Source: Candidatus Omnitrophota bacterium
Lineage (GTDB): Bacteria; Omnitrophota; Gorgyraeia; Gygaellales; Profunditerraquicolaceae
Assembly (NCBI GenBank): GCA_043823435.1
Contig: JBDRAV010000015.1
Location: 1 to 48,612 of the forward strand
Direction: 5' to 3'
DNA length: 48,612 nucleotides
Under the pieces are notes generated by a model that worked only from the letters and a program-made list of their open reading frames with translations, was not told the DNA's origin and did no database searches. Numbering within the stretch: the first letter of the stretch is position 1; every line of letters starts with the position of its first letter. The position numbers and the translations under genes were made by a program. Shown in pieces: positions 1,551-46,690 of the stretch.

Positions 1551-3884
1551 CTATCTTGTTAAAAACTTTGGTTTAAGTGTCATAATCATCGCCGGCAGGA
1601 CCCCCAGTGTTCCTATGGCATTAAAAAATATGAAGAACGCCAATAGCGCCCCTAACCTCGCCTGCAGAAGTATGCTGGAAAAGATCCAGGTAGCTATACC
1701 GATGGTCAGGGTAATACCGGTGAAGAAGACTGCTTTGCCCGACGATGACATTGTCTCGATAAGCGCGTCTTTTAATTCTATCTTGCCACCTCCTTCCTTT
1801 AATTCGTCTTTTATGCGTGATACGATATAGATACCGAAGTCGTCGCCGAAGCCGATCCCTAATGCCACCACGGGGATCATCTCCTGCGTAAGGCTTACGT
1901 TTAAGAAACCTAATATTCCGAACACGAGTAGAGTCCTGAACAATAACGGTATCATTAACAGCCACCCCGAAACCAGCGACCCGTAGGCGAAGACAAGGCA
2001 TAAAAAGACCAGGGCCGCAGTAAGGAGCGAATTCGCCGAGAGCATGGTAGCCACGATCTGATTGACGGCGGCGAGCATCCCGATAGTCCCTCCGGCATAA
2101 TAAAAGTCCGCCTCTTTCGTCTTGTGGTTTGCCTTGATCCAATCCTCCGTCTTCCCGATCACATTATTCATAGTTGATGCCTTATGATCCTTAAGGTCCA
2201 CCTTGATGTTAGCGTATTTATAATTAAAGTTAACCACCGGGTCAAAATCACCCGGGAATCCGGTCAAAGAATATAAAAACAGGTATTCGGCGATAGTCTG
2301 GTCATTATCGGGGATCTTGAATTCCCGGGGGTCACCCGCGAACATAGCCATATTCATCCCTTTTATATATTCTACCAGCGAAAGGCTGCGGCCAACGCCG
2401 TCCACTTCTTTTTCCAGATAACGCTGCAGGCTGTCCATTTCCCTCAGGACCGTATTATTCAAAAACGCATCCTGCCCTTTTCCTTCCACAAATATGTAGT
2501 AAGGATCGGTAGTGGCAAAATGCTCACTGATAAACCCTTCTGCCCGGTTATAAGGGCTATTTCCGTAAAGCAGAGAGGACCCCGGTTTCTTATCTCCGAC
2601 CTCAAGCCTGCTCATCCCCAATACGGCGATCCCCGTTAACAGAAAGAAACCTGCAATGGTCATCCAGCGCGACCTCCTGTTCACCGCTAACCTGGCAAAA
2701 TACCCGAGTATTCTATTAGTGAGCGTGGTCCTCTCTTCTTTGATAACCTCCAGGCGCCTGGGAGGGGCCATGAAAGACAGCATATTAGGGACTAAAATAA
2801 CCGTGCTGAAAAACACGCTTAATATCCCGAAGCCTATGGCGATGGCAAGGCTCCTGACCATTCCCAGCGGGACTATCAGTAACGCAAAAGGCGCAATACC
2901 GTCGGTAAGCAAACCTGTAAAGGCCGGGATGAACAGAGAATGGGTAATATTTATGGCTGCGGCCTTGGAATTACGTTTATGTTTACTCATATATTCATAA
3001 TAACGCTTGATAAACTGTACGGAGTGGCTTACCCCCAGGGCAAAGACTAAGAATGGCGCGAGCACAGTGGAAGGTGTAAGTTTATATCCAAAAAGAACGG
3101 TCATCCCTAATCCCCAGAGTGTAGCCATCCCCGCAGACATCAAAGGAAGCATGACCCCGCGCTTGGACTTGAATACATTGTATAAAACAAGTGCCACCAC
3201 CAGCAAGGTAACCAGAAAAAGGCTGCTCATGCGCGGCAGATAAAAATCGAGCCAACCCTGGAGAACGGGCTGGCCCGTAATATAAATATTATGGTTTTTA
3301 TCCTCGTATTGCTTCTTTATATCCTGTAAGACATTAAAGATCTTTCTTGCCGAAATATCGGATTCAAAATCTGCCTGAATTAGCGTCGCCTTAAAGTCCT
3401 TTGATACGATGGGACCCAGCACAAGGGGGCTCCTTTTAATCTTATACTCAAGCCTCTTAATCTCTTCCGGCGTCCTGGGCGGGTCATGCATCATCCATTC
3501 CGTAACGAAACCTTCTTCGTTGGCTTCAATGTATTTTACTTTACGGGCTGAAAGGGAAACGACCCTCGCCGCATTTATGCCTTCAGTCAGGTAAAGTTGA
3601 TTGGTGATCCGCCAGACCTTATCCAGGGTAACCGGGTTAAGGACAGTGCCGTCTTTCGCTTCTAAGGCGATAGAGACCTGATTAAGTCCGCCAAAGATCT
3701 CGTTGAGCCTCTTCTGGATCTTAAGGTAAGGGTGTTTTAAGGGATAAAAATCCCCGAGGTTTGTCTCAAAACTAAGGTTCTTTAATTGATAGGCAAAAAA
3801 GAGGCTGATGATAAGGCATAAGCCCAGAAAACCGTACCTGTACCTTATCAACCCGTGACTAAACCAATTCAGGAACTTATTCAT
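1551..3884 (-). CDS. MMPL/RND-family transporter
   Basis: Two repeats of TM + periplasmic domain + 5 TM; GIGFGDDFGIY and SSGKAVFFTG motifs. Confidence 0.85.
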   Translation of the reverse strand: MNKFLNWFSHGLIRYRYGFLGLCLIISLFFAYQLKNLSFETNLGDFYPLKHPYLKIQKRLNEIFGGLNQVSIALEAKDGTVLNPVTLDKVWRITNQLYLTEGINAARVVSLSARKVKYIEANEEGFVTEWMMHDPPRTPEEIKRLEYKIKRSPLVLGPIVSKDFKATLIQADFESDISARKIFNVLQDIKKQYEDKNHNIYITGQPVLQGWLDFYLPRMSSLFLVTLLVVALVLYNVFKSKRGVMLPLMSAGMATLWGLGMTVLFGYKLTPSTVLAPFLVFALGVSHSVQFIKRYYEYMSKHKRNSKAAAINITHSLFIPAFTGLLTDGIAPFALLIVPLGMVRSLAIAIGFGILSVFFSTVILVPNMLSFMAPPRRLEVIKEERTTLTNRILGYFARLAVNRRSRWMTIAGFFLLTGIAVLGMSRLEVGDKKPGSSLLYGNSPYNRAEGFISEHFATTDPYYIFVEGKGQDAFLNNTVLREMDSLQRYLEKEVDGVGRSLSLVEYIKGMNMAMFAGDPREFKIPDNDQTIAEYLFLYSLTGFPGDFDPVVNFNYKYANIKVDLKDHKASTMNNVIGKTEDWIKANHKTKEADFYYAGGTIGMLAAVNQIVATMLSANSLLTAALVFLCLVFAYGSLVSGWLLMIPLLFRTLLVFGILGFLNVSLTQEMIPVVALGIGFGDDFGIYIVSRIKDELKEGGGKIELKDALIETMSSSGKAVFFTGITLTIGIATWIFSSILLQARLGALLAFFIFFNAIGTLGVLPAMIMTLKPKFLTR

Positions 3885-5382
3885 TCTGGCTCTTTCTCAG
3901 TTTTTCTTTATCAATCTTTCCGGCACTGTTTTTGGGAAGGACCGGTACAAATTCAAAGTGATGGGGAACCTTAAAATGCGCCAGCTGCCCGCGGCAGAAG
4001 TAACGTAAATCTTCTTTGGTAAGCCTGCTGTCATCTTTTAAAACCACAAATGCCTTGGGTACCTCACCGCGTAATTTATCGGGTATACCTATAGTTGCCG
4101 CTTCCGCTACCTCCGGATGTTTATGCAAGACAGCCTCTACTTCCGGCTCAAAGACGATCTCGCCGCCCACCTTTATCATCTCTTTTTTTCTGCCTGCAAT
4201 ATAAATAAAACCTTCACTGTCAAGCCTTCCCAGGTCTCCGGTATGGAACCAGCCGTTACGCATGGCGTAAGCGGTAGCCTCCGGATCCTTATAATAGCCG
4301 TCGGTAACTACCCAACCCCGCACCACTATCTCGCCTATGCCGCCATGAGGGGCTTCTTTATCATTTTCATCAAATATCTTTACCTCTATCCATGGGGCAG
4401 GCCTGCCTACGCTCTCCAGTTTATCTGAACCCATAGGAATAACGGTAGTAGGCGCATTGGTCTCGGTCAGACCCCAGCCATTCAGAAAATGCGCCTGTGG
4501 GCAATACTGATGAAACCTGCGCAGGGCATCGGAAGAGCTGGCTGCGCCAAAACTGACTATCCAGCGCAGGCTGGAAAGATCCAAATCTTCAAATTCCTTT
4601 AATTGCAAAAGTGCATAATACATAGAAGGCACAATCCACAGGCAGGTAACGCGGTATCTCTGAATATTCTTTAAGAACTCTAAAGGCGTAAAACGCTCCA
4701 TCAATATCATGGTCAGGGCAAAGGCGATATTGTTCTGCAGGTAAACCAACCCCCCCAAATGCGACAGGGGGAGCGCGCATAAAATAATGTCGTCCTCCTT
4801 AAAATCTACAAAATACTTCATCGCCTCAGCCGGCGCTCCCAGCTGCAGATAGTTCACCAAGACGCCTTTTGGTTTACCCGTAGTACCGGAAGTATAAAAG
4901 ATGATCGCGTAATCCCTGTTATCTATCAGCGTATCAGGGGCACTTTTCTTACCTTTCTTGAACAACTCCTCAAAGGATAAGAAAGGCCCTGACCCCTGAG
5001 AGACAACGATATTCTTCAGGCCAGGGCAGCGCTCTTCAATGGAAGATAAAGAAAGCGAGGACCTGGGTTTGGCGATCAATGTCCTGGCCTGCGAGTGAGT
5101 AATACAGGAGACCAGCTCCTCCTCCGTGAGCATAAAATCCAGAGGAACGACGGTCAACCCCAGGCACCACGCAGCCAGGTAACTGTAAACATATTCGGGG
5201 GAATTGGGAAGATAAATAGCAATTTTATCCTGCCTCTTTATCCCTAAGCCTTTCAGGCCATCTGAGAGCTGAAAGACGATATCCCTTAACCGGGAAAAAG
5301 ATATGGTAAGGTTTTGAAAGACTAAGGCGGGCTTATCCGGATTAACTTTAGCCTGATTTTCCAGAATCCTAGCTACATCCAT
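3877..5382 (-). CDS. Long-chain fatty acid--CoA ligase (adenylate-forming family)
   Basis: YTSGTTGKPKG, WGLTE, WFHTGDLG and PKNSAGKI motifs. Start moved to MDVARIL (5382), downstream of the promoter and operator. Confidence 0.88.
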   Translation of the reverse strand: MDVARILENQAKVNPDKPALVFQNLTISFSRLRDIVFQLSDGLKGLGIKRQDKIAIYLPNSPEYVYSYLAAWCLGLTVVPLDFMLTEEELVSCITHSQARTLIAKPRSSLSLSSIEERCPGLKNIVVSQGSGPFLSFEELFKKGKKSAPDTLIDNRDYAIIFYTSGTTGKPKGVLVNYLQLGAPAEAMKYFVDFKEDDIILCALPLSHLGGLVYLQNNIAFALTMILMERFTPLEFLKNIQRYRVTCLWIVPSMYYALLQLKEFEDLDLSSLRWIVSFGAASSSDALRRFHQYCPQAHFLNGWGLTETNAPTTVIPMGSDKLESVGRPAPWIEVKIFDENDKEAPHGGIGEIVVRGWVVTDGYYKDPEATAYAMRNGWFHTGDLGRLDSEGFIYIAGRKKEMIKVGGEIVFEPEVEAVLHKHPEVAEAATIGIPDKLRGEVPKAFVVLKDDSRLTKEDLRYFCRGQLAHFKVPHHFEFVPVLPKNSAGKIDKEKLRKSQNE

Positions 5383-21377: not shown

Positions 21378-21490
21378 AGAATTTTTATTATATAATAAGC
21401 ACCCTGAAAAGCAAGCCTTTTTTAGGCGTAAATTCTCTGTTAGAAAGCTTATTGTCTTGCGTCTATTATGGCAGAAAGGAAATTATTAAA

Positions 21491-23071
21491 ATGCTATCCA
21501 GAATATTCAGTTTCGGGCTATGGGGCATGGAAGCGTATCCTGTTGAGATCGAAATAGATATCTCAAGAGGCTTGCCGGCTGTAACTTTAGTCGGCCTTGC
21601 GGATACGGCGATAAGAGAAAGCAAAGACAGGGTTAAGTCTGCCATCAAGAATTCTGGCTTTACTTGGCCTGCGGAAAGGATTACGGTGAGCCTAGCGCCT
21701 TCTGATATAAAGAAAGAAGGCGCGTCTTTCGACCTGGCGATTGCATTGGGGATACTCGCCGCAAGCCAACAGCTAAATGGCGAGAGATTGAATAATTATT
21801 GCATTCTGGGCGAATTGTCACTGGATGGATCGCTCAGGCCTTCTAAGGGTATATTACCCATAGCCATAGCAATGGCTAACTCCCTGTATGGCAGAAGGAT
21901 AGATAAAATTAAAGATATGATTGTATCTTACCAAAATGCCAGAGAAGCGGCTATAGTTTCAGATATACGCGTTTGGCCGAAGAAGACACTAAAAGAAACA
22001 GTGGAATTCTTGAATAATCCCGATACCTCCAGACCCATGAGAGTAAACTTAGGCGAGTTATTCAATGAGAGGATTGAATACGGAGTAGACTTCTCTGAGG
22101 TCAAAGGGCAATACCTGGCCAAAAGGGCTTTAGAAGTGGGTGTGGCCGGAGGTCACAATATCCTGATGATCGGCCCGCCGGGTAGCGGGAAAACCATGCT
22201 TGCCAAAAGAATTCCTACTATTCTACCCGACTTAACTATTAATGAGGCATTAGAGGTAACTAAGATACATTCCGTAACGGGGATTTTACCATCTAAAGAA
22301 GGCATAATAAGCAGGCGCCCATTCCGCTCACCCCATCACACCAGCTCAAGCATAGCACTGATAGGAGGAGGGTCTATACCCAGGCCCGGAGAAATCAGCC
22401 TGGCGCATCAGGGGGTATTGTTTCTGGATGAGCTTCCGGAATTCCATCGCGATTGCCTGGAGGCACTCAGGCAGCCCCTGGAAGACGGGTCTGTACGCGT
22501 CTTGCGGGTGGCAAAATCTTTTACTTTCCCCGCAGCATTTATGCTGGTCTGCGCAATGAATCCCTGCCCCTGCGGAACGCTGGGACAACTGAAAAGCCCC
22601 TGCCGGTGTAACACCACTCAGATTGCAAGGTATCACGCGAAACTCTCTGGGCCGCTGTTAGATAGGATAGATATACACATTGAAGTGCCGGCTGCAAGGT
22701 ATCAAGAACTATCCAGCAACCTGCCTGCTGAGGCTTCTGTTCAAATTAGAGAGAGGATAAATAAAGCTAGAGTTATTCAACGAGAGAGATTTTCCGCCGC
22801 AGGCGGATCCGCCTTCGGCGGAAAAAATGAAGGCATTATGTTTAACGCGCAGATGAGCCATAAACAGGTTCGTAAGTTTTGCCCCCTGGGTAAAGAAGAA
22901 AACGAATTGCTTAAAATGGCTATGACTGAATTAAATTTTATCGCAAGGGCTTATGATAAGATATTGAAGGTGTCAAGGACGATTGCGGATTTGTCAGGGA
23001 ATGAAGAAATTAATACTGAGCATCTTTCAGAAGCAATACAGTATAGGAGCTTGGATAGGCAGTGGTGGTAA
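21491..23071 (+). CDS. comM: YifB/ComM Mg-chelatase-like AAA+ ATPase
   Basis: LVGLADTAIRES, GPPGSGKT, RPFRSPHHT, GEISLAHQGVLFLDE and SGPLLDRID motifs. Start MLSRIF. Confidence 0.93.
   Translation: MLSRIFSFGLWGMEAYPVEIEIDISRGLPAVTLVGLADTAIRESKDRVKSAIKNSGFTWPAERITVSLAPSDIKKEGASFDLAIALGILAASQQLNGERLNNYCILGELSLDGSLRPSKGILPIAIAMANSLYGRRIDKIKDMIVSYQNAREAAIVSDIRVWPKKTLKETVEFLNNPDTSRPMRVNLGELFNERIEYGVDFSEVKGQYLAKRALEVGVAGGHNILMIGPPGSGKTMLAKRIPTILPDLTINEALEVTKIHSVTGILPSKEGIISRRPFRSPHHTSSSIALIGGGSIPRPGEISLAHQGVLFLDELPEFHRDCLEALRQPLEDGSVRVLRVAKSFTFPAAFMLVCAMNPCPCGTLGQLKSPCRCNTTQIARYHAKLSGPLLDRIDIHIEVPAARYQELSSNLPAEASVQIRERINKARVIQRERFSAAGGSAFGGKNEGIMFNAQMSHKQVRKFCPLGKEENELLKMAMTELNFIARAYDKILKVSRTIADLSGNEEINTEHLSEAIQYRSLDRQWW
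22793..22822. repeat. 30-bp in-frame double-palindrome insertion in yifB
   Basis: TCCGCCGCAGGCGGA+TCCGCCTTCGGCGGA, encoding SAAGGSAFGG between QRERF and KNEGI. Confidence 0.8.
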
Positions 23072-23072
23072 A

Positions 23073-24698
23073 CTATTTATGGAATACTTCTTTTAGGATT
23101 ACATTTGCGATATTCTCGGCCAAAAGCCAGTTGCCCTCCTCTGTGCAATGTCCGAAATCGCCGCCAAATATATCTATAAAATATGTACTGAAGCCGTCTG
23201 TCTTAATAGCATCTTTGAATATCTGCTCATTGTCTACGAAAACAATACCTTCTTGCTGGCCTTCAAATATCCTCTTCAAAGGCTCTACACTACGCATGGG
23301 ATATTGCACACAGACCAATCCTATCTTCTTTTTATCTAAGATTTCTTTAAACCTACGGTAGTTGTTAACTGTAACAGGGTTATAATATCCTAATCTCAAT
23401 CTATTCACCTTGTTAGCGTATTCTTTTGTCAGTTCTGATTTACCTATTTCTTCGTATAATACCGAGATTGCTCCATACGCATTGCCGTCTTCAGGCTTCA
23501 GTTCTATGGCTTTTTGGAATGACTCTATGGCCTGGGGGTATTTGCCTTTAGACTGATAAACAAACCCTAATCCATAGTATGCAGTACCGTCTTCAGGGTT
23601 CAGCTCTATGGCTTTTTGGAATGACTCTATGGCCTGGGGGTATTTGCCTTGAACTCGATAAAACCACCCTTGATCTCGATAAGTCCGCCCTAATTCACGG
23701 TATGCATCGCCGTCTTTAGGGTTCAGCTCTATGGCTTTTTGGAATGACTCTATGGCCTGGGGGTATTTGCCTTGAACTAGATAAAGCCACCCTAATTGAA
23801 GACATGCACGGCCCCCTTCAGGGTTCAGCTCTATGGCTTTTTGGAATGACTCTTCGGCCTGGGGGTATTTGCCTTGATCTCGATAAAACCACCCTAATTC
23901 AAGGTATGCATCGCCGTCTTTAGGGTTCAGCTCTATGGCTTTTTGGAATGACTCTTCGGCCTGGGGGTATTTGCCTTGAACTAGATAAAGCCACCCTTGA
24001 TCTCGATAAGTCCGCCCTAATTCACGGTATGCATCGCCGTCTTTAGGGTTCAGCTCTATGGCTTTTTGGAATGACTCTACATCTAAAACAGGCTCAGAAT
24101 AAGCTTCTTTTAACCCGACTCCTGGAGGATAAGTCTGGATTTTCTTGGAGCCTTGCCTGTCTTTGTCAGGTTTATAAAGTCCTGTTTCCTTGGCTTTAGT
24201 TAAGATATGCAACCAAAGAAGCCTTGATAGTTTATAAATTCTGAAGGATTTAAAGAAAAGCCAGATATTTGAAGTAGTGTCTATTTCATAAGGGAGATGT
24301 CCTCCTCTATCATTTATCCCCATCATCGTAACTACCATATCAGGGTGATAGTTATTGATATTAGATTCAAGTTGCCCTAAAAGTTGCGATGTATTAGCTG
24401 CGATGCTCCCCCTGTTTATTACATTAAATTTTATACCGATGTTACGCTGGTTTAATATCTCTTCAAGAAAAGCAGGGTATTCTCCTGCAGTGGTAGACTC
24501 ACCTATACAAAGGATTCTGTAGGTGCCTTTTTGTTTTATGGTTTGACAGTTCCAGTATTCTTGTAGAGATAACAGGGCAAGCCCGCCCAGGCGTAAAGCT
24601 ATTTCTAAAATTATAAGAAATAAAAATAGTCCGAATATAACCAAAGTTATTTTTGTTTTAAGGGCTGTTTTTGGTTTGGCTGGATTATTCTTTTGCAT
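23073..24698 (-). CDS. Membrane-anchored SGNH-like hydrolase/acyltransferase split by a TPR array (paralog 1)
   Basis: TM; CIGESTT, INRG and GIND blocks; about 6 TPRs; C-terminal DFGHCT (DxxH). Confidence 0.75.
   Translation of the reverse strand: MQKNNPAKPKTALKTKITLVIFGLFLFLIILEIALRLGGLALLSLQEYWNCQTIKQKGTYRILCIGESTTAGEYPAFLEEILNQRNIGIKFNVINRGSIAANTSQLLGQLESNINNYHPDMVVTMMGINDRGGHLPYEIDTTSNIWLFFKSFRIYKLSRLLWLHILTKAKETGLYKPDKDRQGSKKIQTYPPGVGLKEAYSEPVLDVESFQKAIELNPKDGDAYRELGRTYRDQGWLYLVQGKYPQAEESFQKAIELNPKDGDAYLELGWFYRDQGKYPQAEESFQKAIELNPEGGRACLQLGWLYLVQGKYPQAIESFQKAIELNPKDGDAYRELGRTYRDQGWFYRVQGKYPQAIESFQKAIELNPEDGTAYYGLGFVYQSKGKYPQAIESFQKAIELKPEDGNAYGAISVLYEEIGKSELTKEYANKVNRLRLGYYNPVTVNNYRRFKEILDKKKIGLVCVQYPMRSVEPLKRIFEGQQEGIVFVDNEQIFKDAIKTDGFSTYFIDIFGGDFGHCTEEGNWLLAENIANVILKEVFHK
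23480..24080. repeat. Near-identical intragenic tandem repeats encoding TPRs
   Basis: TTCAG(C/T)TCTATGGCTTTTTGGAATGACTC at 23497, 23599, 23722, 23824, 23926 and 24049 (periods 102, 123, 102, 102, 123). Confidence 0.9.
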
Positions 24699-24786
24699 AA
24701 CGCTTTAATTATACCACTTCCATTTAAAATGGTATGGATTTAAGGCAGGGTGTCTACTAATTCCCACTCAAATGTTGTATTGCGTT

Positions 24787-24885
24787 CACAGCATCCTGAT
24801 GATCGGGCCTGCCGGTAGCGGCAAGAGTATGCTGGCTAAAAGAATGCCCACACTTTACGCAATCCAATATGGTTATGGAAAGTAG
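24787..24885 (+). pseudogene. Internally deleted yifB/comM 3'-half remnant
   Basis: Translates HSILMIGPAGSGKSMLAKRMPTL-YAIQYGYGK*. The first 23 aa are 18/23 identical to YifB HNILMIGPPGSGKTMLAKRIPTI, and AIQY matches the YifB C-terminus. Confidence 0.8.
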
Positions 24886-24891
24886 CAATAT

Positions 24892-26385
24892 CTATTTGCC
24901 AAATACTTCTTTTAATATAACGTTTGCAATATTCTCGGCTAAAAGCCTGTTCCCCTTCTCTGTGCAATGCCCGAAATCGCCGCCAATCATATCACGAAAG
25001 TATTCTTCGTAACTTCCCTTCGCCATAGCCTCCTTAAATATTCTCTCGTTATCAACGAATATTATTCCCGCTTGATTTTGAAATATTACTTTCAGGGGCT
25101 CAATGGAGCGTACGGGATATTGCATGCACACAAACCTAACTTTACGTCTATCTAATATTTCTATAAACCTTAAGTAATTATTCCGGGTAACAGGATTATA
25201 ATTTTCAAAACGTAACTGTTTAACTTTGTCATAATACCTCTGCACGTCTTTTCTGTCATTCGTTATCATGTTTAAACTCGCTAGCGCACCATAATACCGA
25301 TCCGTATTATCCGGGTCTATTTTTATGGCTTTATTTAATACCTCTACGGCCTCAGCAAATTTATTTTGCTTCTGATAGCAATGTGCCAATTCGATATATG
25401 CCCAGCAGAACCCGGGGTTTAGCGCTATAGCGTTGCGAAGAACTTCTTCTAATCGTAATAAGTCACCGCGTATTTTATACACATATAAACCTAATTCAAA
25501 ATATGTTGTTGCATTTTTAGGATCGGATTCTATTGCTTTTTTAAACATTTCCTCTGCCAGATCCATTTTATTGTACCGGGTATAAATGAACCCCAGATTA
25601 GAATAATACCAGGGGTTACCCGGATTTAACTCCAAGGCTCTCTTAAACAGCCTTTCGGCTTCGGAAAATTTATAGCGGGTTATATAAAATTGGCCTAATG
25701 CATCATAGGCGTGGTCGTCAGATGGATTCATAACTATCGCATCTTTTAAGGCATCTGCTTCTGTATTGTCATATTGAGCCTGCACATTTTTTTCAGATGG
25801 AACGGACGTATTGCTGAAAGGGCGGGCAATTGGGGAGGGGGCGTCGTTACTATTTTTATTGCGTATTCTTAATTCATGCATTTTGTTAGTGGCGTGCGCC
25901 CAGAGAAGACATATCAACTTATATACCTTTAAAGAATTAAAAAACTTCTTATTATTTGAATTCCCGATAGACGCATAGGGAATGTGTTTACCTGCGTCAT
26001 TGAGCCCTATCATTGCAATAACCATGTCGGGTTGATAAGAGTCAATGTTGCTTTCCAGTTTTTCCAGGATCGCAGAGGTATTAATTCCTGGCACTCCTTT
26101 ATTAATGACTGAAAAACGTATGCCTGCATTTCTTTGATTTAATATTTTTTCTAGCAATACGGGGTAGATATTAGCCGTCGTAGACTCACCTATACACACG
26201 ATCCTATAGGTTCCCTTTTGTTTGAGCGAAGACAAATTTCTGTATTCCTGCATGGATAGGAATATAAATCCGCCTAGGCGCAATGTTACTTCAAGCATGA
26301 TAACTAATAAAACTAATCCGAATAATATAAGAATTATTTTCTGACGTAGATTCGCTTGTATTTGAACGCGGTTATCTATACGCAT
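24892..26385 (-). CDS. SGNH-like/TPR membrane protein (paralog 2)
   Basis: Same architecture as 23073-24698 (CIGESTT, INKG, GLND, diverged TPRs, DFGHCT). Confidence 0.75.
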   Translation of the reverse strand: MRIDNRVQIQANLRQKIILILFGLVLLVIMLEVTLRLGGFIFLSMQEYRNLSSLKQKGTYRIVCIGESTTANIYPVLLEKILNQRNAGIRFSVINKGVPGINTSAILEKLESNIDSYQPDMVIAMIGLNDAGKHIPYASIGNSNNKKFFNSLKVYKLICLLWAHATNKMHELRIRNKNSNDAPSPIARPFSNTSVPSEKNVQAQYDNTEADALKDAIVMNPSDDHAYDALGQFYITRYKFSEAERLFKRALELNPGNPWYYSNLGFIYTRYNKMDLAEEMFKKAIESDPKNATTYFELGLYVYKIRGDLLRLEEVLRNAIALNPGFCWAYIELAHCYQKQNKFAEAVEVLNKAIKIDPDNTDRYYGALASLNMITNDRKDVQRYYDKVKQLRFENYNPVTRNNYLRFIEILDRRKVRFVCMQYPVRSIEPLKVIFQNQAGIIFVDNERIFKEAMAKGSYEEYFRDMIGGDFGHCTEKGNRLLAENIANVILKEVFGK

Positions 26386-26473
26386 TGGCCTAGTTTTTTA
26401 CAGCACAGTGTCCTGGATAAACATATATGAACCCTCCTACTCATTTTTTATTACTTGGCCGGAAGGGGCAATC

Positions 26474-26704
26474 TCAGTAAGCTTCTTGGTCTCTGCCCCG
26501 GAAACCTTCGTAATTGATGCGTATGAAATCGCGCCAGCTATTCGGGATAAACTCAAATTTAAGAACCGGATCCTTACTAAATCGGTATATAGAACTTTCC
26601 TTTTTTACCATAATTCTCAATGCCGCCTCGCTTGTCAATAAACCGAAAACAACACCGGTAAATATATACAACCATACATAAGAAAATGCGGTCCTCTTTT
26701 TCAA
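26474..26704 (-). pseudogene. Truncated N-terminus of an SGNH-family membrane protein
   Basis: EAALR...IYRFSKDPVLKFEFIPN...INYEGFRG resembles the N-terminus of 31908-32897 (EIILR...IYRRSLDPYLRYELVPG...INSDGFRG) but stops before the GDS block. Confidence 0.6.
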
Positions 26705-26706
26705 TT

Positions 26707-28740
26707 TTATCGATACGGATAATGCCCCTTTTGTTGTTCTCGCAACGATTCCAGAAACTCCGGGTCTACCCGATTCCCTAGCTTGATTACCTCATCGCAG
26801 TGCTCAACCGCTAAGTCGTATTCTCCCTTTTGATAATAGAATACCGCCAAATTGAAGTGCGCTGTTGAAAACCCCGGATCAAGTTGCACTGCTTTCTCCC
26901 ATAGCCCTATCGCCTTATCGATCTCTCCGGTATCCGCATACACCGATGCCAAATTATTAAATGCCTCGACATACCCCGGGGCAATACGAATTGCTTTTTC
27001 ATAAGCCTCTATAGCATCATCCTTTCTGCCGCTCCTGTCATAAGCATCGCCGAGATTATAATATGCCTGCGGCATATCAGGATTAAAATGTATCGCCTTC
27101 CTGCACGAATCTATCGCCTCATGGTTATTACCGATAATTATATATGCGTTACAGAGACTGTTGTGCGCATCAGGGTAATAAGGATTAAGCCCTATCGCCT
27201 TTTTATATTCCTCGATAGCCTCCCTGATTCGTCCCAAGTTAAGATATATATTGCCCAGTTTATAATAGCTAAGCGGCATGCGCGCAAACTGGGGTTTAAG
27301 CGCCATGGCTTTATACAAAGCGATGGCTTCTTCGGGCCTGCCGGTGTTCGCGTAGGCCGTAGCGAGATTATTGTAGGCTTCTGCGTAATCCGGCTTTACT
27401 TCTATGGCCTTTTTATACAAGACCACTGCTTCTTCGGGCCTGCCGGTGTTCGCGTAGGCCGTACCGAGATTATTGTAGGCTATCCAGGCCCCCGGATTCT
27501 TTTCGATTAATCCGCGCCAAAGCGTAAAATTATTCTTGTAATTCCCGGTCAGGGCCATACTTTCTGTAACCATATAAATCGTTATAAGCATAAATAACCC
27601 GGCAATGATGAATCTATTGGGAAGCGCTCTAAAAAAAGGAATTTTTTTGCTTAACTTATCGTACAGGAAACCTATGGTTGCGCAAAGCAATAACAGAAGA
27701 GCCGGAGTGGAAAGATAACTGAAGTGGTCTGCGACAAAAGAGAATACCATCCCGTACACGTTCAAGAAGCCCATCACCGGGAAGATGGAGATTATGTAAA
27801 AAAGGAAAAGCGCTAACGCGCCACGGCCGACCCTCTTTCTGTAACGCGTAAGTCCGGCTAAAACTAAGATAGCAGCAAAGGGAAACAACCATTGCCACCA
27901 CATCCCGGCATCCACTGCCCAGCGCGGATAGAAAAATATAAAGTTAAAAGGAAAAAGGGTTTTGTGAATATAAAAAAATATTACCCTGCCTGACAGGAGA
28001 AAACGCTCCATAAAGGTTAAGCCAAACCCCTTTCCTTGCGCCCCGACATTATAAAATTCTAAATAAAGAGTGTACAGCGCGCTGATGAGGCCTATGGCCG
28101 CAAAAACAGCCCAGGATTTGATTTCCCGTAGCGTAACTTTTCCGTCATGCCACCATTTATATAAGGCAGGAAAGGATATAAAACATACGGCAATGGATTT
28201 ACTTAACAAAGCGCATATAAACATTATAACCGTCAGCAGGTAATCCCTGATTCTCTGCGTGCGGTCAAAGCGCAGATATGACAATACCGCCAGCAGAAAG
28301 AAAAAAAGGCTCAGAAGGTTTTTCCGTTCGGTAATCCAGGCCACGGTCTCTACCTGGATTGGGTGGATGGTAAATAATAAAGCCACCGGCAAGGCAAGGC
28401 GGGCATATAATTTGCGCACTACCCAAAAGACCAAAAGCGCATTTAAAATATGCAAAAGCAAATTCACAACATGGTACCCGAAAGGATCCACCCCCCATAA
28501 TTTATGCTCGATCCAGAAAGTCGTGAAATCAACGGGGTAATATTGGTACATTCTTCCGGTAAGCCAGATGACCCGTAACCCGTCTGCCTTCTGGAACCAT
28601 GGGCTTTTATATATATTGACGTCGTCGTCCCAGATGAAACCATTCTGCAGGGAAGGGATATAAATTACAAGACAGAGGAATACGATCAGAATGAGCTGAC
28701 AGAATATTTTATATTGCGGATATTTAAGGTTGTAATTCAT
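26707..28740 (-). CDS. TMTC-like GT-C glycosyltransferase with C-terminal TPRs
   Basis: FIWDD, GYHVVNLLLH, HPIQVETVAWITERK, LLSK and ADHFSYL motifs; about 8 TPRs, two of them near-identical at DNA level (102-bp period near 27327/27429). Confidence 0.82.
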   Translation of the reverse strand: MNYNLKYPQYKIFCQLILIVFLCLVIYIPSLQNGFIWDDDVNIYKSPWFQKADGLRVIWLTGRMYQYYPVDFTTFWIEHKLWGVDPFGYHVVNLLLHILNALLVFWVVRKLYARLALPVALLFTIHPIQVETVAWITERKNLLSLFFFLLAVLSYLRFDRTQRIRDYLLTVIMFICALLSKSIAVCFISFPALYKWWHDGKVTLREIKSWAVFAAIGLISALYTLYLEFYNVGAQGKGFGLTFMERFLLSGRVIFFYIHKTLFPFNFIFFYPRWAVDAGMWWQWLFPFAAILVLAGLTRYRKRVGRGALALFLFYIISIFPVMGFLNVYGMVFSFVADHFSYLSTPALLLLLCATIGFLYDKLSKKIPFFRALPNRFIIAGLFMLITIYMVTESMALTGNYKNNFTLWRGLIEKNPGAWIAYNNLGTAYANTGRPEEAVVLYKKAIEVKPDYAEAYNNLATAYANTGRPEEAIALYKAMALKPQFARMPLSYYKLGNIYLNLGRIREAIEEYKKAIGLNPYYPDAHNSLCNAYIIIGNNHEAIDSCRKAIHFNPDMPQAYYNLGDAYDRSGRKDDAIEAYEKAIRIAPGYVEAFNNLASVYADTGEIDKAIGLWEKAVQLDPGFSTAHFNLAVFYYQKGEYDLAVEHCDEVIKLGNRVDPEFLESLREQQKGHYPYR

Positions 28741-46413: not shown

Positions 46414-46690
46414 CTATTTGCCCAAGAGCGCCTCCAGTATTGCGCTGGCAATATTCACGGCAAGCAATCGTTTGCCTTTATCCGTGCAGTCCCCGCCGAA
46501 CATATCCTTAAAATAGGCTTTGTACCTTTTTTTTCTTCGCCTTCTCTCTGAAAATTTTATCGTTACCAGCAAAGATAACTCAGGAAGCATCTTTTTTAAA
46601 TATTATGTTCAAAAGAATAATGCTTCGCATGAGTACTATACTCATACGGATTTTACCTTGCGTCCATCTAAATTCTCTTTAAGTTTAATC
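46414..46690 (-). pseudogene. Decayed C-terminal remnant of a third SGNH-TPR paralog
   Basis: LKENLDGRKVKSV*V*Y...MRSII...VIFAGNDKIF...YFKDMFGGD-CTDKGKRLLAVNIASAILEALLGK*; contains stops, a frameshift and a deletion of FGH. Confidence 0.75.

Follow-up and report, generated by a model that had tools for sequence, protein, structure and literature searches.

A putative attachment-site scar beside yifB/comM in an Omnitrophota genome and recurrent insertion at the Walker A codons of the gene

Staphylococcal cassette chromosome (SCC) elements rely on large serine recombinases to enter one conserved target, rlmH/orfX, where ccr-less pseudo-SCC remnants are found in tandem. In Dehalococcoides, the ssrA islands carry a gene for a serine recombinase of ~540 residues beside the left attachment site (attL) and share one conserved single-copy target; the boundaries of the islands repeat the 3' end of the target gene, each repeat having a conserved non-gene motif immediately before it, and the islands stand in tandem, some of them without integration genes (PMC3146451). 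Also described are cis-mobilizable elements (CIMEs), decayed elements without integration genes that persist at a target gene while newer ones are added alongside (PMC5704250), and Prochlorococcus tycheposons, whose successive same-site integrations push older elements inward and leave partial target copies (bioRxiv 10.1101/2020.12.28.424599). The gene comM (yifB) is itself interrupted at its Walker B codons, through TnsF, by the Tn7-like Tn6022, which makes 5-bp duplications, and by Tsy, which uses a tyrosine recombinase (PMC10293859, PMC11014353). Here we analyse a 48,612-nucleotide (nt) stretch from a Candidatus Omnitrophota bacterium, referred to as the window, in which an intact yifB/comM gene is followed by a second, displaced piece of yifB, and we propose that this piece marks an insertion site of integrative elements within the Walker A codons.

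How does this locus compare with the systems above? The yifB elements of this family resemble the ssrA islands in the ~540-residue serine recombinase by attL, the conserved target, the repeated 3' end with its upstream motif and the recombinase-less tandem units. The ssrA target, however, comprises the last 20 bp of the tmRNA gene, which stays whole, whereas the yifB site lies mid-gene and insertion splits it; and unlike the ssrA islands, restored yifB has a replacement tail, of 168 codons at a second site and putatively of ~300 codons in the window. SCC elements share with the yifB elements the large serine recombinase, the single conserved gene and the recombinase-less remnants; they differ in using the extreme 3' end of their target, in carrying no long gene tail and in belonging to another phylum. 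As in the CIMEs, integration genes are missing from the window remnant, but a CIME keeps attL as well as the right site (attR), whereas the window holds an attR-type scar only, its left side being the restored gene. With Tn6022 and Tsy the yifB elements have in common that the coding sequence of a conserved ATPase motif of comM serves as an anchor that spans species; they differ in using the Walker A (~235-240) and CPCG (372) codons and a large serine recombinase, and in that the gene is restored at many loci. The Walker B motif of yifB (GVLFLDELPEF) lies near residue 320, away from both insertion sites, and no Tn7-type protein family was detected among 57 proteins scanned, TnsF itself not having been searched for. 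The tycheposons likewise leave partial target-gene copies and degraded elements; they differ in their tRNA targets, tyrosine recombinases and short partial copies. A literature search that left out subscription journals and supplements found no report of serine-recombinase elements at the Walker A or CPCG codons of comM, or of comM tail replacement.

Anatomy of the junction and its counterparts in relatives

We consider it probable, at roughly 60%, that positions 24739-24885 of the window are an attR-type scar of integrative elements that insert via a large serine recombinase into the Walker A codons of Omnitrophota yifB/comM. The window is one whole 48.6-kb contig of a metagenome-assembled genome (MAG) of 786 kb that is 58% complete, and the intact yifB at 21452-23071 is the sole full copy that a genome-wide protein search recovers there. 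As a preliminary description of this DNA had stated, the stop codons of yifB and of the convergent SGNH-TPR paralog 1 are 1 nt apart (23071 and 23073). Beyond paralog 1, a second yifB piece opens at 24787 with CAC, in register with 22154 of the intact gene, and upstream of this CAC the similarity to intact yifB stops abruptly. The piece translates as HSILMIGPAGSGKSMLAKRMPTL (23 Walker A codons) and then, as had been noted and can be read directly in the sequence, jumps in frame to YAIQYGYGK, with its stop codon (24883-24885) 6 nt from that of SGNH-TPR paralog 2. Its reality is borne out by a match of the 32 residues to Pfam Mg_chelatase (E = 6.6e-8), by the genome-wide protein search (E = 3.6e-5) and by a repeat search, in which it forms a 66-nt direct repeat of 79% identity. 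The earlier count of 18 of 23 identical residues with mostly third-position differences is correct: 53 of 69 nt agree with the intact gene, 12 of the 16 differences fall at third positions, and a manual count gives 11 synonymous and five replacement changes. Because the changes are mostly synonymous, most of the divergence would have arisen while both sequences were working genes. Compared with every yifB in our set, the 69-nt fragment is identical at 46 to 57 positions and does not point to the nearest relative.

The counterparts of this junction were found in related genomes (here G-numbers denote genomes, with G000 the source, L-numbers loci and C-numbers contigs). In G059 and G108, yifB is split at residues 235-242 by elements of 11.7 kb and 16.5 kb, respectively, such that the 5' parts end at residues 242 and 240 and the 3' parts begin at 235. 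Directly before the yifB 3' part stands the same sequence that precedes the second piece in the window, namely the right half of a ~90-nt module, which represents the right end of the element. The left end, following the yifB 5' part, carries ACGCAATAT, the inverse of ATATTGCGT at the right end; when joined, the ends form an inverted repeat around ~22 nt, with the CT of ATC|CTG in the middle, 10-11 nt past the first base of CAC. Judged from this symmetry, the crossover likely occurs ~10 nt after the first base of CAC, which in the intact gene of the window would likely be the CT at 22163-22164. The first gene of each element, next to the left junction, encodes a 541-residue protein with Resolvase, Recombinase and Zn_ribbon_recom domains, and the two proteins are 58% identical. 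A further insertion, in G001, diverges right after the CT and has the same left-arm motif; that genome also has the gene in uninterrupted form, on a different contig. The insertion splits of G059, G108 and G001 fall within ~12 nt, and the scars in G000, G009, G128 and G173 are in register with them. Compared with the codons of the host itself, the 10 nt that precede the CT show three differences in G059, two in G000, one each in G009 and G108 and none in G128; since such differences occur in the scars, CACAGCATCC at 24787-24796 is best taken as an element arm that mimics yifB. Thus, the piece was correctly described as being in register with the His codon of the intact gene, but its start there is only apparent, the first 10 nt being element arm; likewise, insertion at the GGH/Walker A site is recurrent in the family, with the likely crossover shifted to ~10 nt past the first base of CAC.

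In addition to their serine recombinases, the two elements carry other genes. That of G108 (L188) also encodes a 559-residue tyrosine recombinase with an HTH_17 domain (3557-5233, minus strand) and HEPN and PBECR nuclease-like proteins, and that of G059 a DNA methylase and a KAP-type NTPase.

The same junction was seen in many genomes. The ~90-nt module, followed by CAC, precedes yifB 3' sequence in G000, G009, G128 and G173, and the leftward genes beside it vary (SGNH-TPR, radical SAM, GT2, sulfatase). In G128 the copy equals the intact gene at 105 of 105 nt from CAC onward and at only 16 of 60 nt upstream, the contig ending within the repeat; in G173 the yifB copy is full of deletions and the module well preserved. 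Searched with a sequence model of the module, 49 of 151 family genomes gave matches at E <= 0.001, and 24 of the matches, in 17 of the 151, reached the core. The junction pattern was also found in 24 metagenome stretches (one being the G128 contig itself and one apparently the G009 locus), seven of which run on into recognisable yifB; the remainder have only ~14-35 nt of yifB or jump to the CPCG region. The two halves of the module behave differently. Its right half can be aligned to the right ends of the G059 and G108 elements and to scars in other genomes, and is always accompanied by at least the first few bases of the core, whereas the left half occurs alone, scattered through the genomes of relatives and once more in G000 (C17), and is therefore a generic promoter type. 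In the window this half contains, at 24708-24716 on the minus strand, the extended -10 box TGGTATAAT, which is 10 nt away from the ATG of SGNH-TPR paralog 1, and a palindrome, CCATTTAAAATGG, at 24720-24732; with its ATG at 24696-24698, the mRNA of paralog 1 is predicted from this spacing to be nearly leaderless. We also considered that the module might be a structured RNA and rejected this reading: Rfam gave no significant match (best E = 0.15), and no conserved fold emerged from a consensus of 10 modules (-1.45 kcal/mol, eight pairs, essentially no covariation).

Within the family, the genes upstream of yifB (accA, LysM/YkuD, PAP2 and a coiled-coil gene) are conserved and those downstream vary by genome, and displaced yifB 3' pieces occur in several genomes. 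Of 40 relatives searched, 37 had a yifB match, and three of these (G002, G009, G021) hold same-strand yifB 3' pieces downstream of the intact gene. A second set of 40 genomes, which is biased in that 38 were chosen for giving two or more yifB matches, added eight with a displaced 3' piece: G049, G087 (weak), G103 (two tails), G128, G147, G164, G173 and G179. The displaced copies range from fresh (100% and 94% identity to the own gene in G128 and G021, over 35 residues each) to heavily decayed (G173). The cargo had been proposed to consist of surface-modification genes. Such genes are indeed present, with SGNH/GDSL, radical SAM (three loci), sulfatase (two loci) and GT2 plus PMT_2; the cargo also includes AbiEi/AbiEii with a helix-turn-helix gene, a Na/H exchanger with PTS EIIA, SieB and an IS200-like gene. 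Almost all cargo genes are oriented toward yifB. Among 24 cargo proteins scanned from 11 related loci we found no recombinase, and one IS200-like Y1 transposase. The absence of a recombinase in cis that had been noted therefore holds for the window remnant and for these cargo sets, but not for the elements at the same site in G059 and G108.

Could another enzyme be responsible? A Xer-type mechanism was considered and rejected: G000, G147 and G049 hold only two Xer-like tyrosine recombinases each (XerC and XerD in the 58% complete G000), and no dif-like sequence was seen at the junction, by eye only. The extra tyrosine integrases in G128, G173 and G009 were discarded as agents because no yifB piece or module adjoins them, one weak partial match lying beside such an integrase (L139, E = 0.0018). 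The suggested likeness to an integron was not sustained either, given that G000 has no IntI (XerD and XerC only, with the integron model below cut-off), that no conserved hairpin is present at the boundary sequence and that the cargo has its own promoter.

Tail replacement, gene repair and competing explanations

A replacement of the gene's tail can be observed directly at a second site, in G147. Up to the core TGCCCGTGCGG (Cys372), its intact gene and that of the congener G146 are identical at 282 of 300 nt; past the core, they are identical at 250 of 450. The displaced copy, which lies downstream of the cargo, agrees with G146 at 399 of 450 nt and with its own intact gene at 252 of 450; at the protein level, identity is 89% to G146 and 56% to the own gene, which ranks 50th of 75. 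In G147 the tail of the intact gene is foreign, and the one that belongs to the host is present as the displaced copy. In G173, G049 and G179, too, the displaced copy differs from the intact gene of the same genome (own-gene ranks 51, 46 and 53 of 75), and in G128 and G021 it is nearly identical to it. G147 and G049 share a homologous flank before the Cys372 junction, which by eye resembles the element end at the Walker A site (class I); the Cys372 junctions may reflect either a recombinase with a second specificity or an internally deleted class I scar, and we do not favour one over the other. Three contigs break exactly at yifB residue 371/372 (the end of G009:C148, the start of G009:C42 and the end of G127:C48), which is the position of this second junction class, and unassembled elements may be hidden there.

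Has the gene in the window likewise received a foreign tail? In trees of the two gene halves, the 5' half of G000 falls in the genus clade (SH-like approximate likelihood ratio test, SH-aLRT, 95), and the 3' half in a nine-row clade (SH-aLRT 99) to which two genomes from other families also belong. The approximately unbiased (AU) test on the 5' half rejects the nine-row clade (p = 0.00027), a group that was named after seeing the tree. A breakpoint scan of 2775 yifB pairs found a strongly supported breakpoint in 275; 71 of these lie at residues 360-399 and only seven at 220-259, and pairs that include G000 have theirs near residues 373-403. The proposal of a replacement tail with a displaced, decaying counterpart is thus upheld in G147 and by displaced copies in relatives, and not for a foreign tail in G000, since the AU test does not reject the genus clade for the 3' half.

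How might a gene split by an element become whole again? We infer that a serine recombinase made the scar in the window and that the gene was subsequently repaired, and we envision the following course. Insertion at the Walker A codons would have split yifB. The scar would then be tripartite, comprising ~48 nt of element end, within which the arm motif ATTGCGT lies; 10 nt of arm sequence imitating His-Asn-Ile codons; and, past the crossover (CT/TG, ~24796-24798), the resident yifB 3' part, which would later have lost ~270 codons. Internal deletions comparable to this one are found in other decayed yifB copies (G173, L151, L162, L166). The gene would have been made whole by a second yifB 3' part that arrived with the convergent SGNH-TPR paralog 1 and its promoter; by analogy with G147, the tail of the intact gene in G000 would be the incoming one. 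The element body, including the recombinase gene, would since have been lost from the window, where SGNH-TPR paralog 1 alone now stands between yifB and the scar and no integration or transfer genes are found at the remnant. Only the right arm is present; there is no left arm of an element, and the left boundary is a continuous yifB reading frame. Three routes of repair are conceivable: recombination with an intact allele, a route that has been suggested for A. baumannii comM (PMC11472951); an exchange of an attR-type with an intact site, carried out by the recombinase; or short-homology insertion of circles.

Several observations weigh against this account. A serine recombinase normally leaves a split gene with attL and attR, so a further step is required to arrive at the restored left junction. 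A search with PF00239 turned up no serine recombinase (0 matches), either in the window or in the source genome, which is 58% complete. Close relatives of the G108 recombinase (at least 41% identity) occur in only three of 204 family genomes, namely G108, G059 and G204 (41% identical), some large serine recombinase being present in 38 of the 204 at E <= 1e-30. A native tail in G000, that is, the genus clade for the 3' half, is not rejected by the AU test (p = 0.28). The 23-codon fragment of G000 is about equally distant from every yifB, with the own gene ranking 17th of 75, and a clean switch between host and foreign sequence is seen at the Cys372 site only, the Walker A congeners G173 and G171 being too diverged. 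The account gives no reason why the generic promoter half is joined to the element end, and one module array, L170 (G127:C31, 2363-5229), lies away from yifB, downstream of a Ski2-like helicase gene. This array has three module ends within 3 kb and no yifB nearby; two of its units are exact duplicates, and its cargo includes two pilin-like genes and one ORF6N gene.

Alternatively, the unit of yifB 3' part, cargo and module might itself be mobile as a circle, with a serine recombinase acting in trans to join its attR-type site to an intact attB. The product would be an intact hybrid gene and a new attR followed by the host tail, in a reaction that is reversible and builds arrays. Consistently, both G147 junctions fall within one 11-nt core despite a DNA identity of only 56% between the two tails, exact direct repeats flank a three-gene unit in G128, no cargo set contains a recombinase, and repeated module ends form arrays in relatives (L167, G127:C31, G079:C3 and the two tails of G103, to which G086:C55 and G019:C7 can be added as further loci with module-end arrays). 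The scarcity of the recombinase's close relatives tells against this scheme as well, circular forms were not seen, and attR-type sites are normally blocked from pairing with attB; on balance we regard it as rather unlikely. The corresponding view that recombinase-less units of yifB tail, cargo and element end are distinct mobile cassettes, swapped in and out of comM by a large serine recombinase in trans via attR x attB, is equally tentative.

Still less probable, in our estimation, is the initially proposed model taken without a dedicated enzyme, in which circles would be excised by homologous recombination between yifB 3' copies and re-enter other genomes at the most conserved patches (Walker A, CPCG), either by homologous recombination or through short homology, the junction descending from a single founder. 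In every carrier both the junction and its flank are homologous, and yifB is mosaic: the concentration of breakpoints at residues 360-399 fits such exchanges, as does the fact that G035 and the G000 group have only the last ~170 residues in common. However, the longest exact run shared by the incoming and resident tails of G147 is 11 nt, and ordinary homologous recombination therefore looks unlikely there; the tails share two runs of this length, and the event used the one at the junction. In addition, the arm before the crossover is unlike host sequence, and serine-recombinase elements with inverted-repeat ends sit at exactly this junction. Finally, a one-off local tandem duplication of the yifB 3' half plus SGNH-TPR, followed by decay and involving no mobile element, would explain why both units share a layout and why the last 112 nt of the paralogs are 82% identical (repeat search), but it is highly improbable in view of the same junction and ~90-nt flank beside unrelated genes in other genera, the mostly synonymous differences that imply divergence mostly while both copies were functional, the overall paralog identity of only 42%, the 105/105-nt copy in G128 and the element ends in G059 and G108.

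Neighbouring genes and rejected sites

The features of the locus are collected in Table 1. The PMT_2-TPR gene is probably an older convergent neighbour of yifB: it is directly convergent with yifB in G007, G013, G087 and G179, and a displaced yifB piece abuts the convergent PMT_2-TPR gene in G002, G021 and G049. A convergent SGNH-TPR gene abuts yifB also in G079, G085 and G169, the unit of SGNH-TPR gene plus module recurs in decayed form in G169, and the two-gene layout of the window recurs in the metagenome locus L163. The idea that SGNH-TPR genes are always linked to yifB was rejected: the closest homologue found (68% identity) has no yifB within 6 kb, and neither does a tandem SGNH-TPR pair in a Planctomycetales MAG.

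Table 1. Coordinates of the features at the yifB locus of the window
Feature	Position	Strand	Remarks
yifB/comM, intact, 539 residues	21452..23071	+	ChlI, Mg_chelatase and Mg_chelatase_C domains
Attachment site within yifB, His235 to Walker A codons	22154..22185	+	Split by elements in G059 and G108; insertion in G001
yifB 3' part, possible replacement tail	22164..23071	+	Proposed by analogy with G147
SGNH-TPR paralog 1; transmembrane segment, SGNH domain split by TPR insert	23073..24698	-	Between restored yifB and scar
Module left half	24704..24738	-	Extended -10 box and palindrome; generic promoter type
Module right half, putative last ~48 nt of a mobile element	24739..24786	+	Arm motif ATTGCGT at 24779-24785; aligns with right ends in G059 and G108
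Putative element arm (P half-site) CACAGCATCC	24787..24796	+	Mimics His-Asn-Ile codons; two differences from the host's own arm
Displaced resident yifB piece (putative), Walker A, ~residues 238-257	24797..24855	+	Differences mostly synonymous
Displaced yifB C-terminal stub (putative), AIQY to stop	24856..24885	+	After internal deletion of ~270 codons
SGNH-TPR paralog 2	24892..26385	-	Putative former convergent neighbour of the resident yifB tail
12-mer CACAGTGTCCTG	26404..26415	+	Rejected as third site
Short SGNH gene, N-terminal stub, 76 residues	26474..26704	-	Truncated; without Pfam match
PMT_2 glycosyltransferase with TPR repeats	26707..28740	-	Adjoins yifB or displaced tails in relatives

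The 12-mer upstream of paralog 2 (HSVL) had been put forward as an analogous site. We rejected it: the region lacks the module and any further similarity to yifB, and the 12-mer lies 19 nt from the start of paralog 2, compared with 89 nt for the real fragment. The pattern that finds it was, moreover, written after seeing it. The window holds a single scar rather than the array of repeated units that had been proposed, and the idea of a one-off duplication is contradicted by the recurrence of the junction in other genera.

Several further observations concern the genes themselves. Within yifB, an in-frame palindrome of 18+18 nt (22790-22825, 94% complementary) encodes the extra residues SAAGGSAFGGK, which are absent from the G002 and G021 proteins. 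SGNH-TPR paralog 1 contains, at 23479-24085, five to six TPR units of 102 nt with DNA identities of up to 90-98%, which suggests recent repeat expansion or homogenisation; paralog 2 is without such repeats. A pseudogene fragment with four stop codons (46417-46689, minus strand) resembles the C-terminal 93 residues of paralog 2, and the stub at 26474-26704 resembles intact short SGNH genes, from the window as well as from relatives, over their N-terminal part. In G005, G006, G036, G028, G040 and G027, the orientation of yifB relative to the conserved upstream genes is reversed, and in G020 a decayed N-terminal piece (residues 1-189) lies beside an inverted intact copy (loci of the inverted and decayed cases: L070, L072, L029, L058, L075, L084, L071).

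Implications for the family

If units with a yifB tail were indeed exchanged as cassettes, cargo would spread among diverged Omnitrophota while comM stays functional, and the tail of a housekeeping gene would in effect belong to a mobile element. Irrespective of the mechanism, our findings add two conserved-motif anchors in comM, the Walker A and CPCG codons, used in an uncultured phylum and apparently by a different class of enzyme. The two candidate serine recombinases have predicted targets that are short, highly conserved coding sequences. The locus also displays the aftermath of insertion, in which the gene is whole with a foreign tail, of 168 codons in G147 and conceivably of up to ~300 elsewhere, and a dated series of scars is left behind. 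A corollary of tail replacement is that yifB trees are mosaic in this family. Read as a record, the scars may document how mobile elements and a gene for natural transformation have been in conflict.

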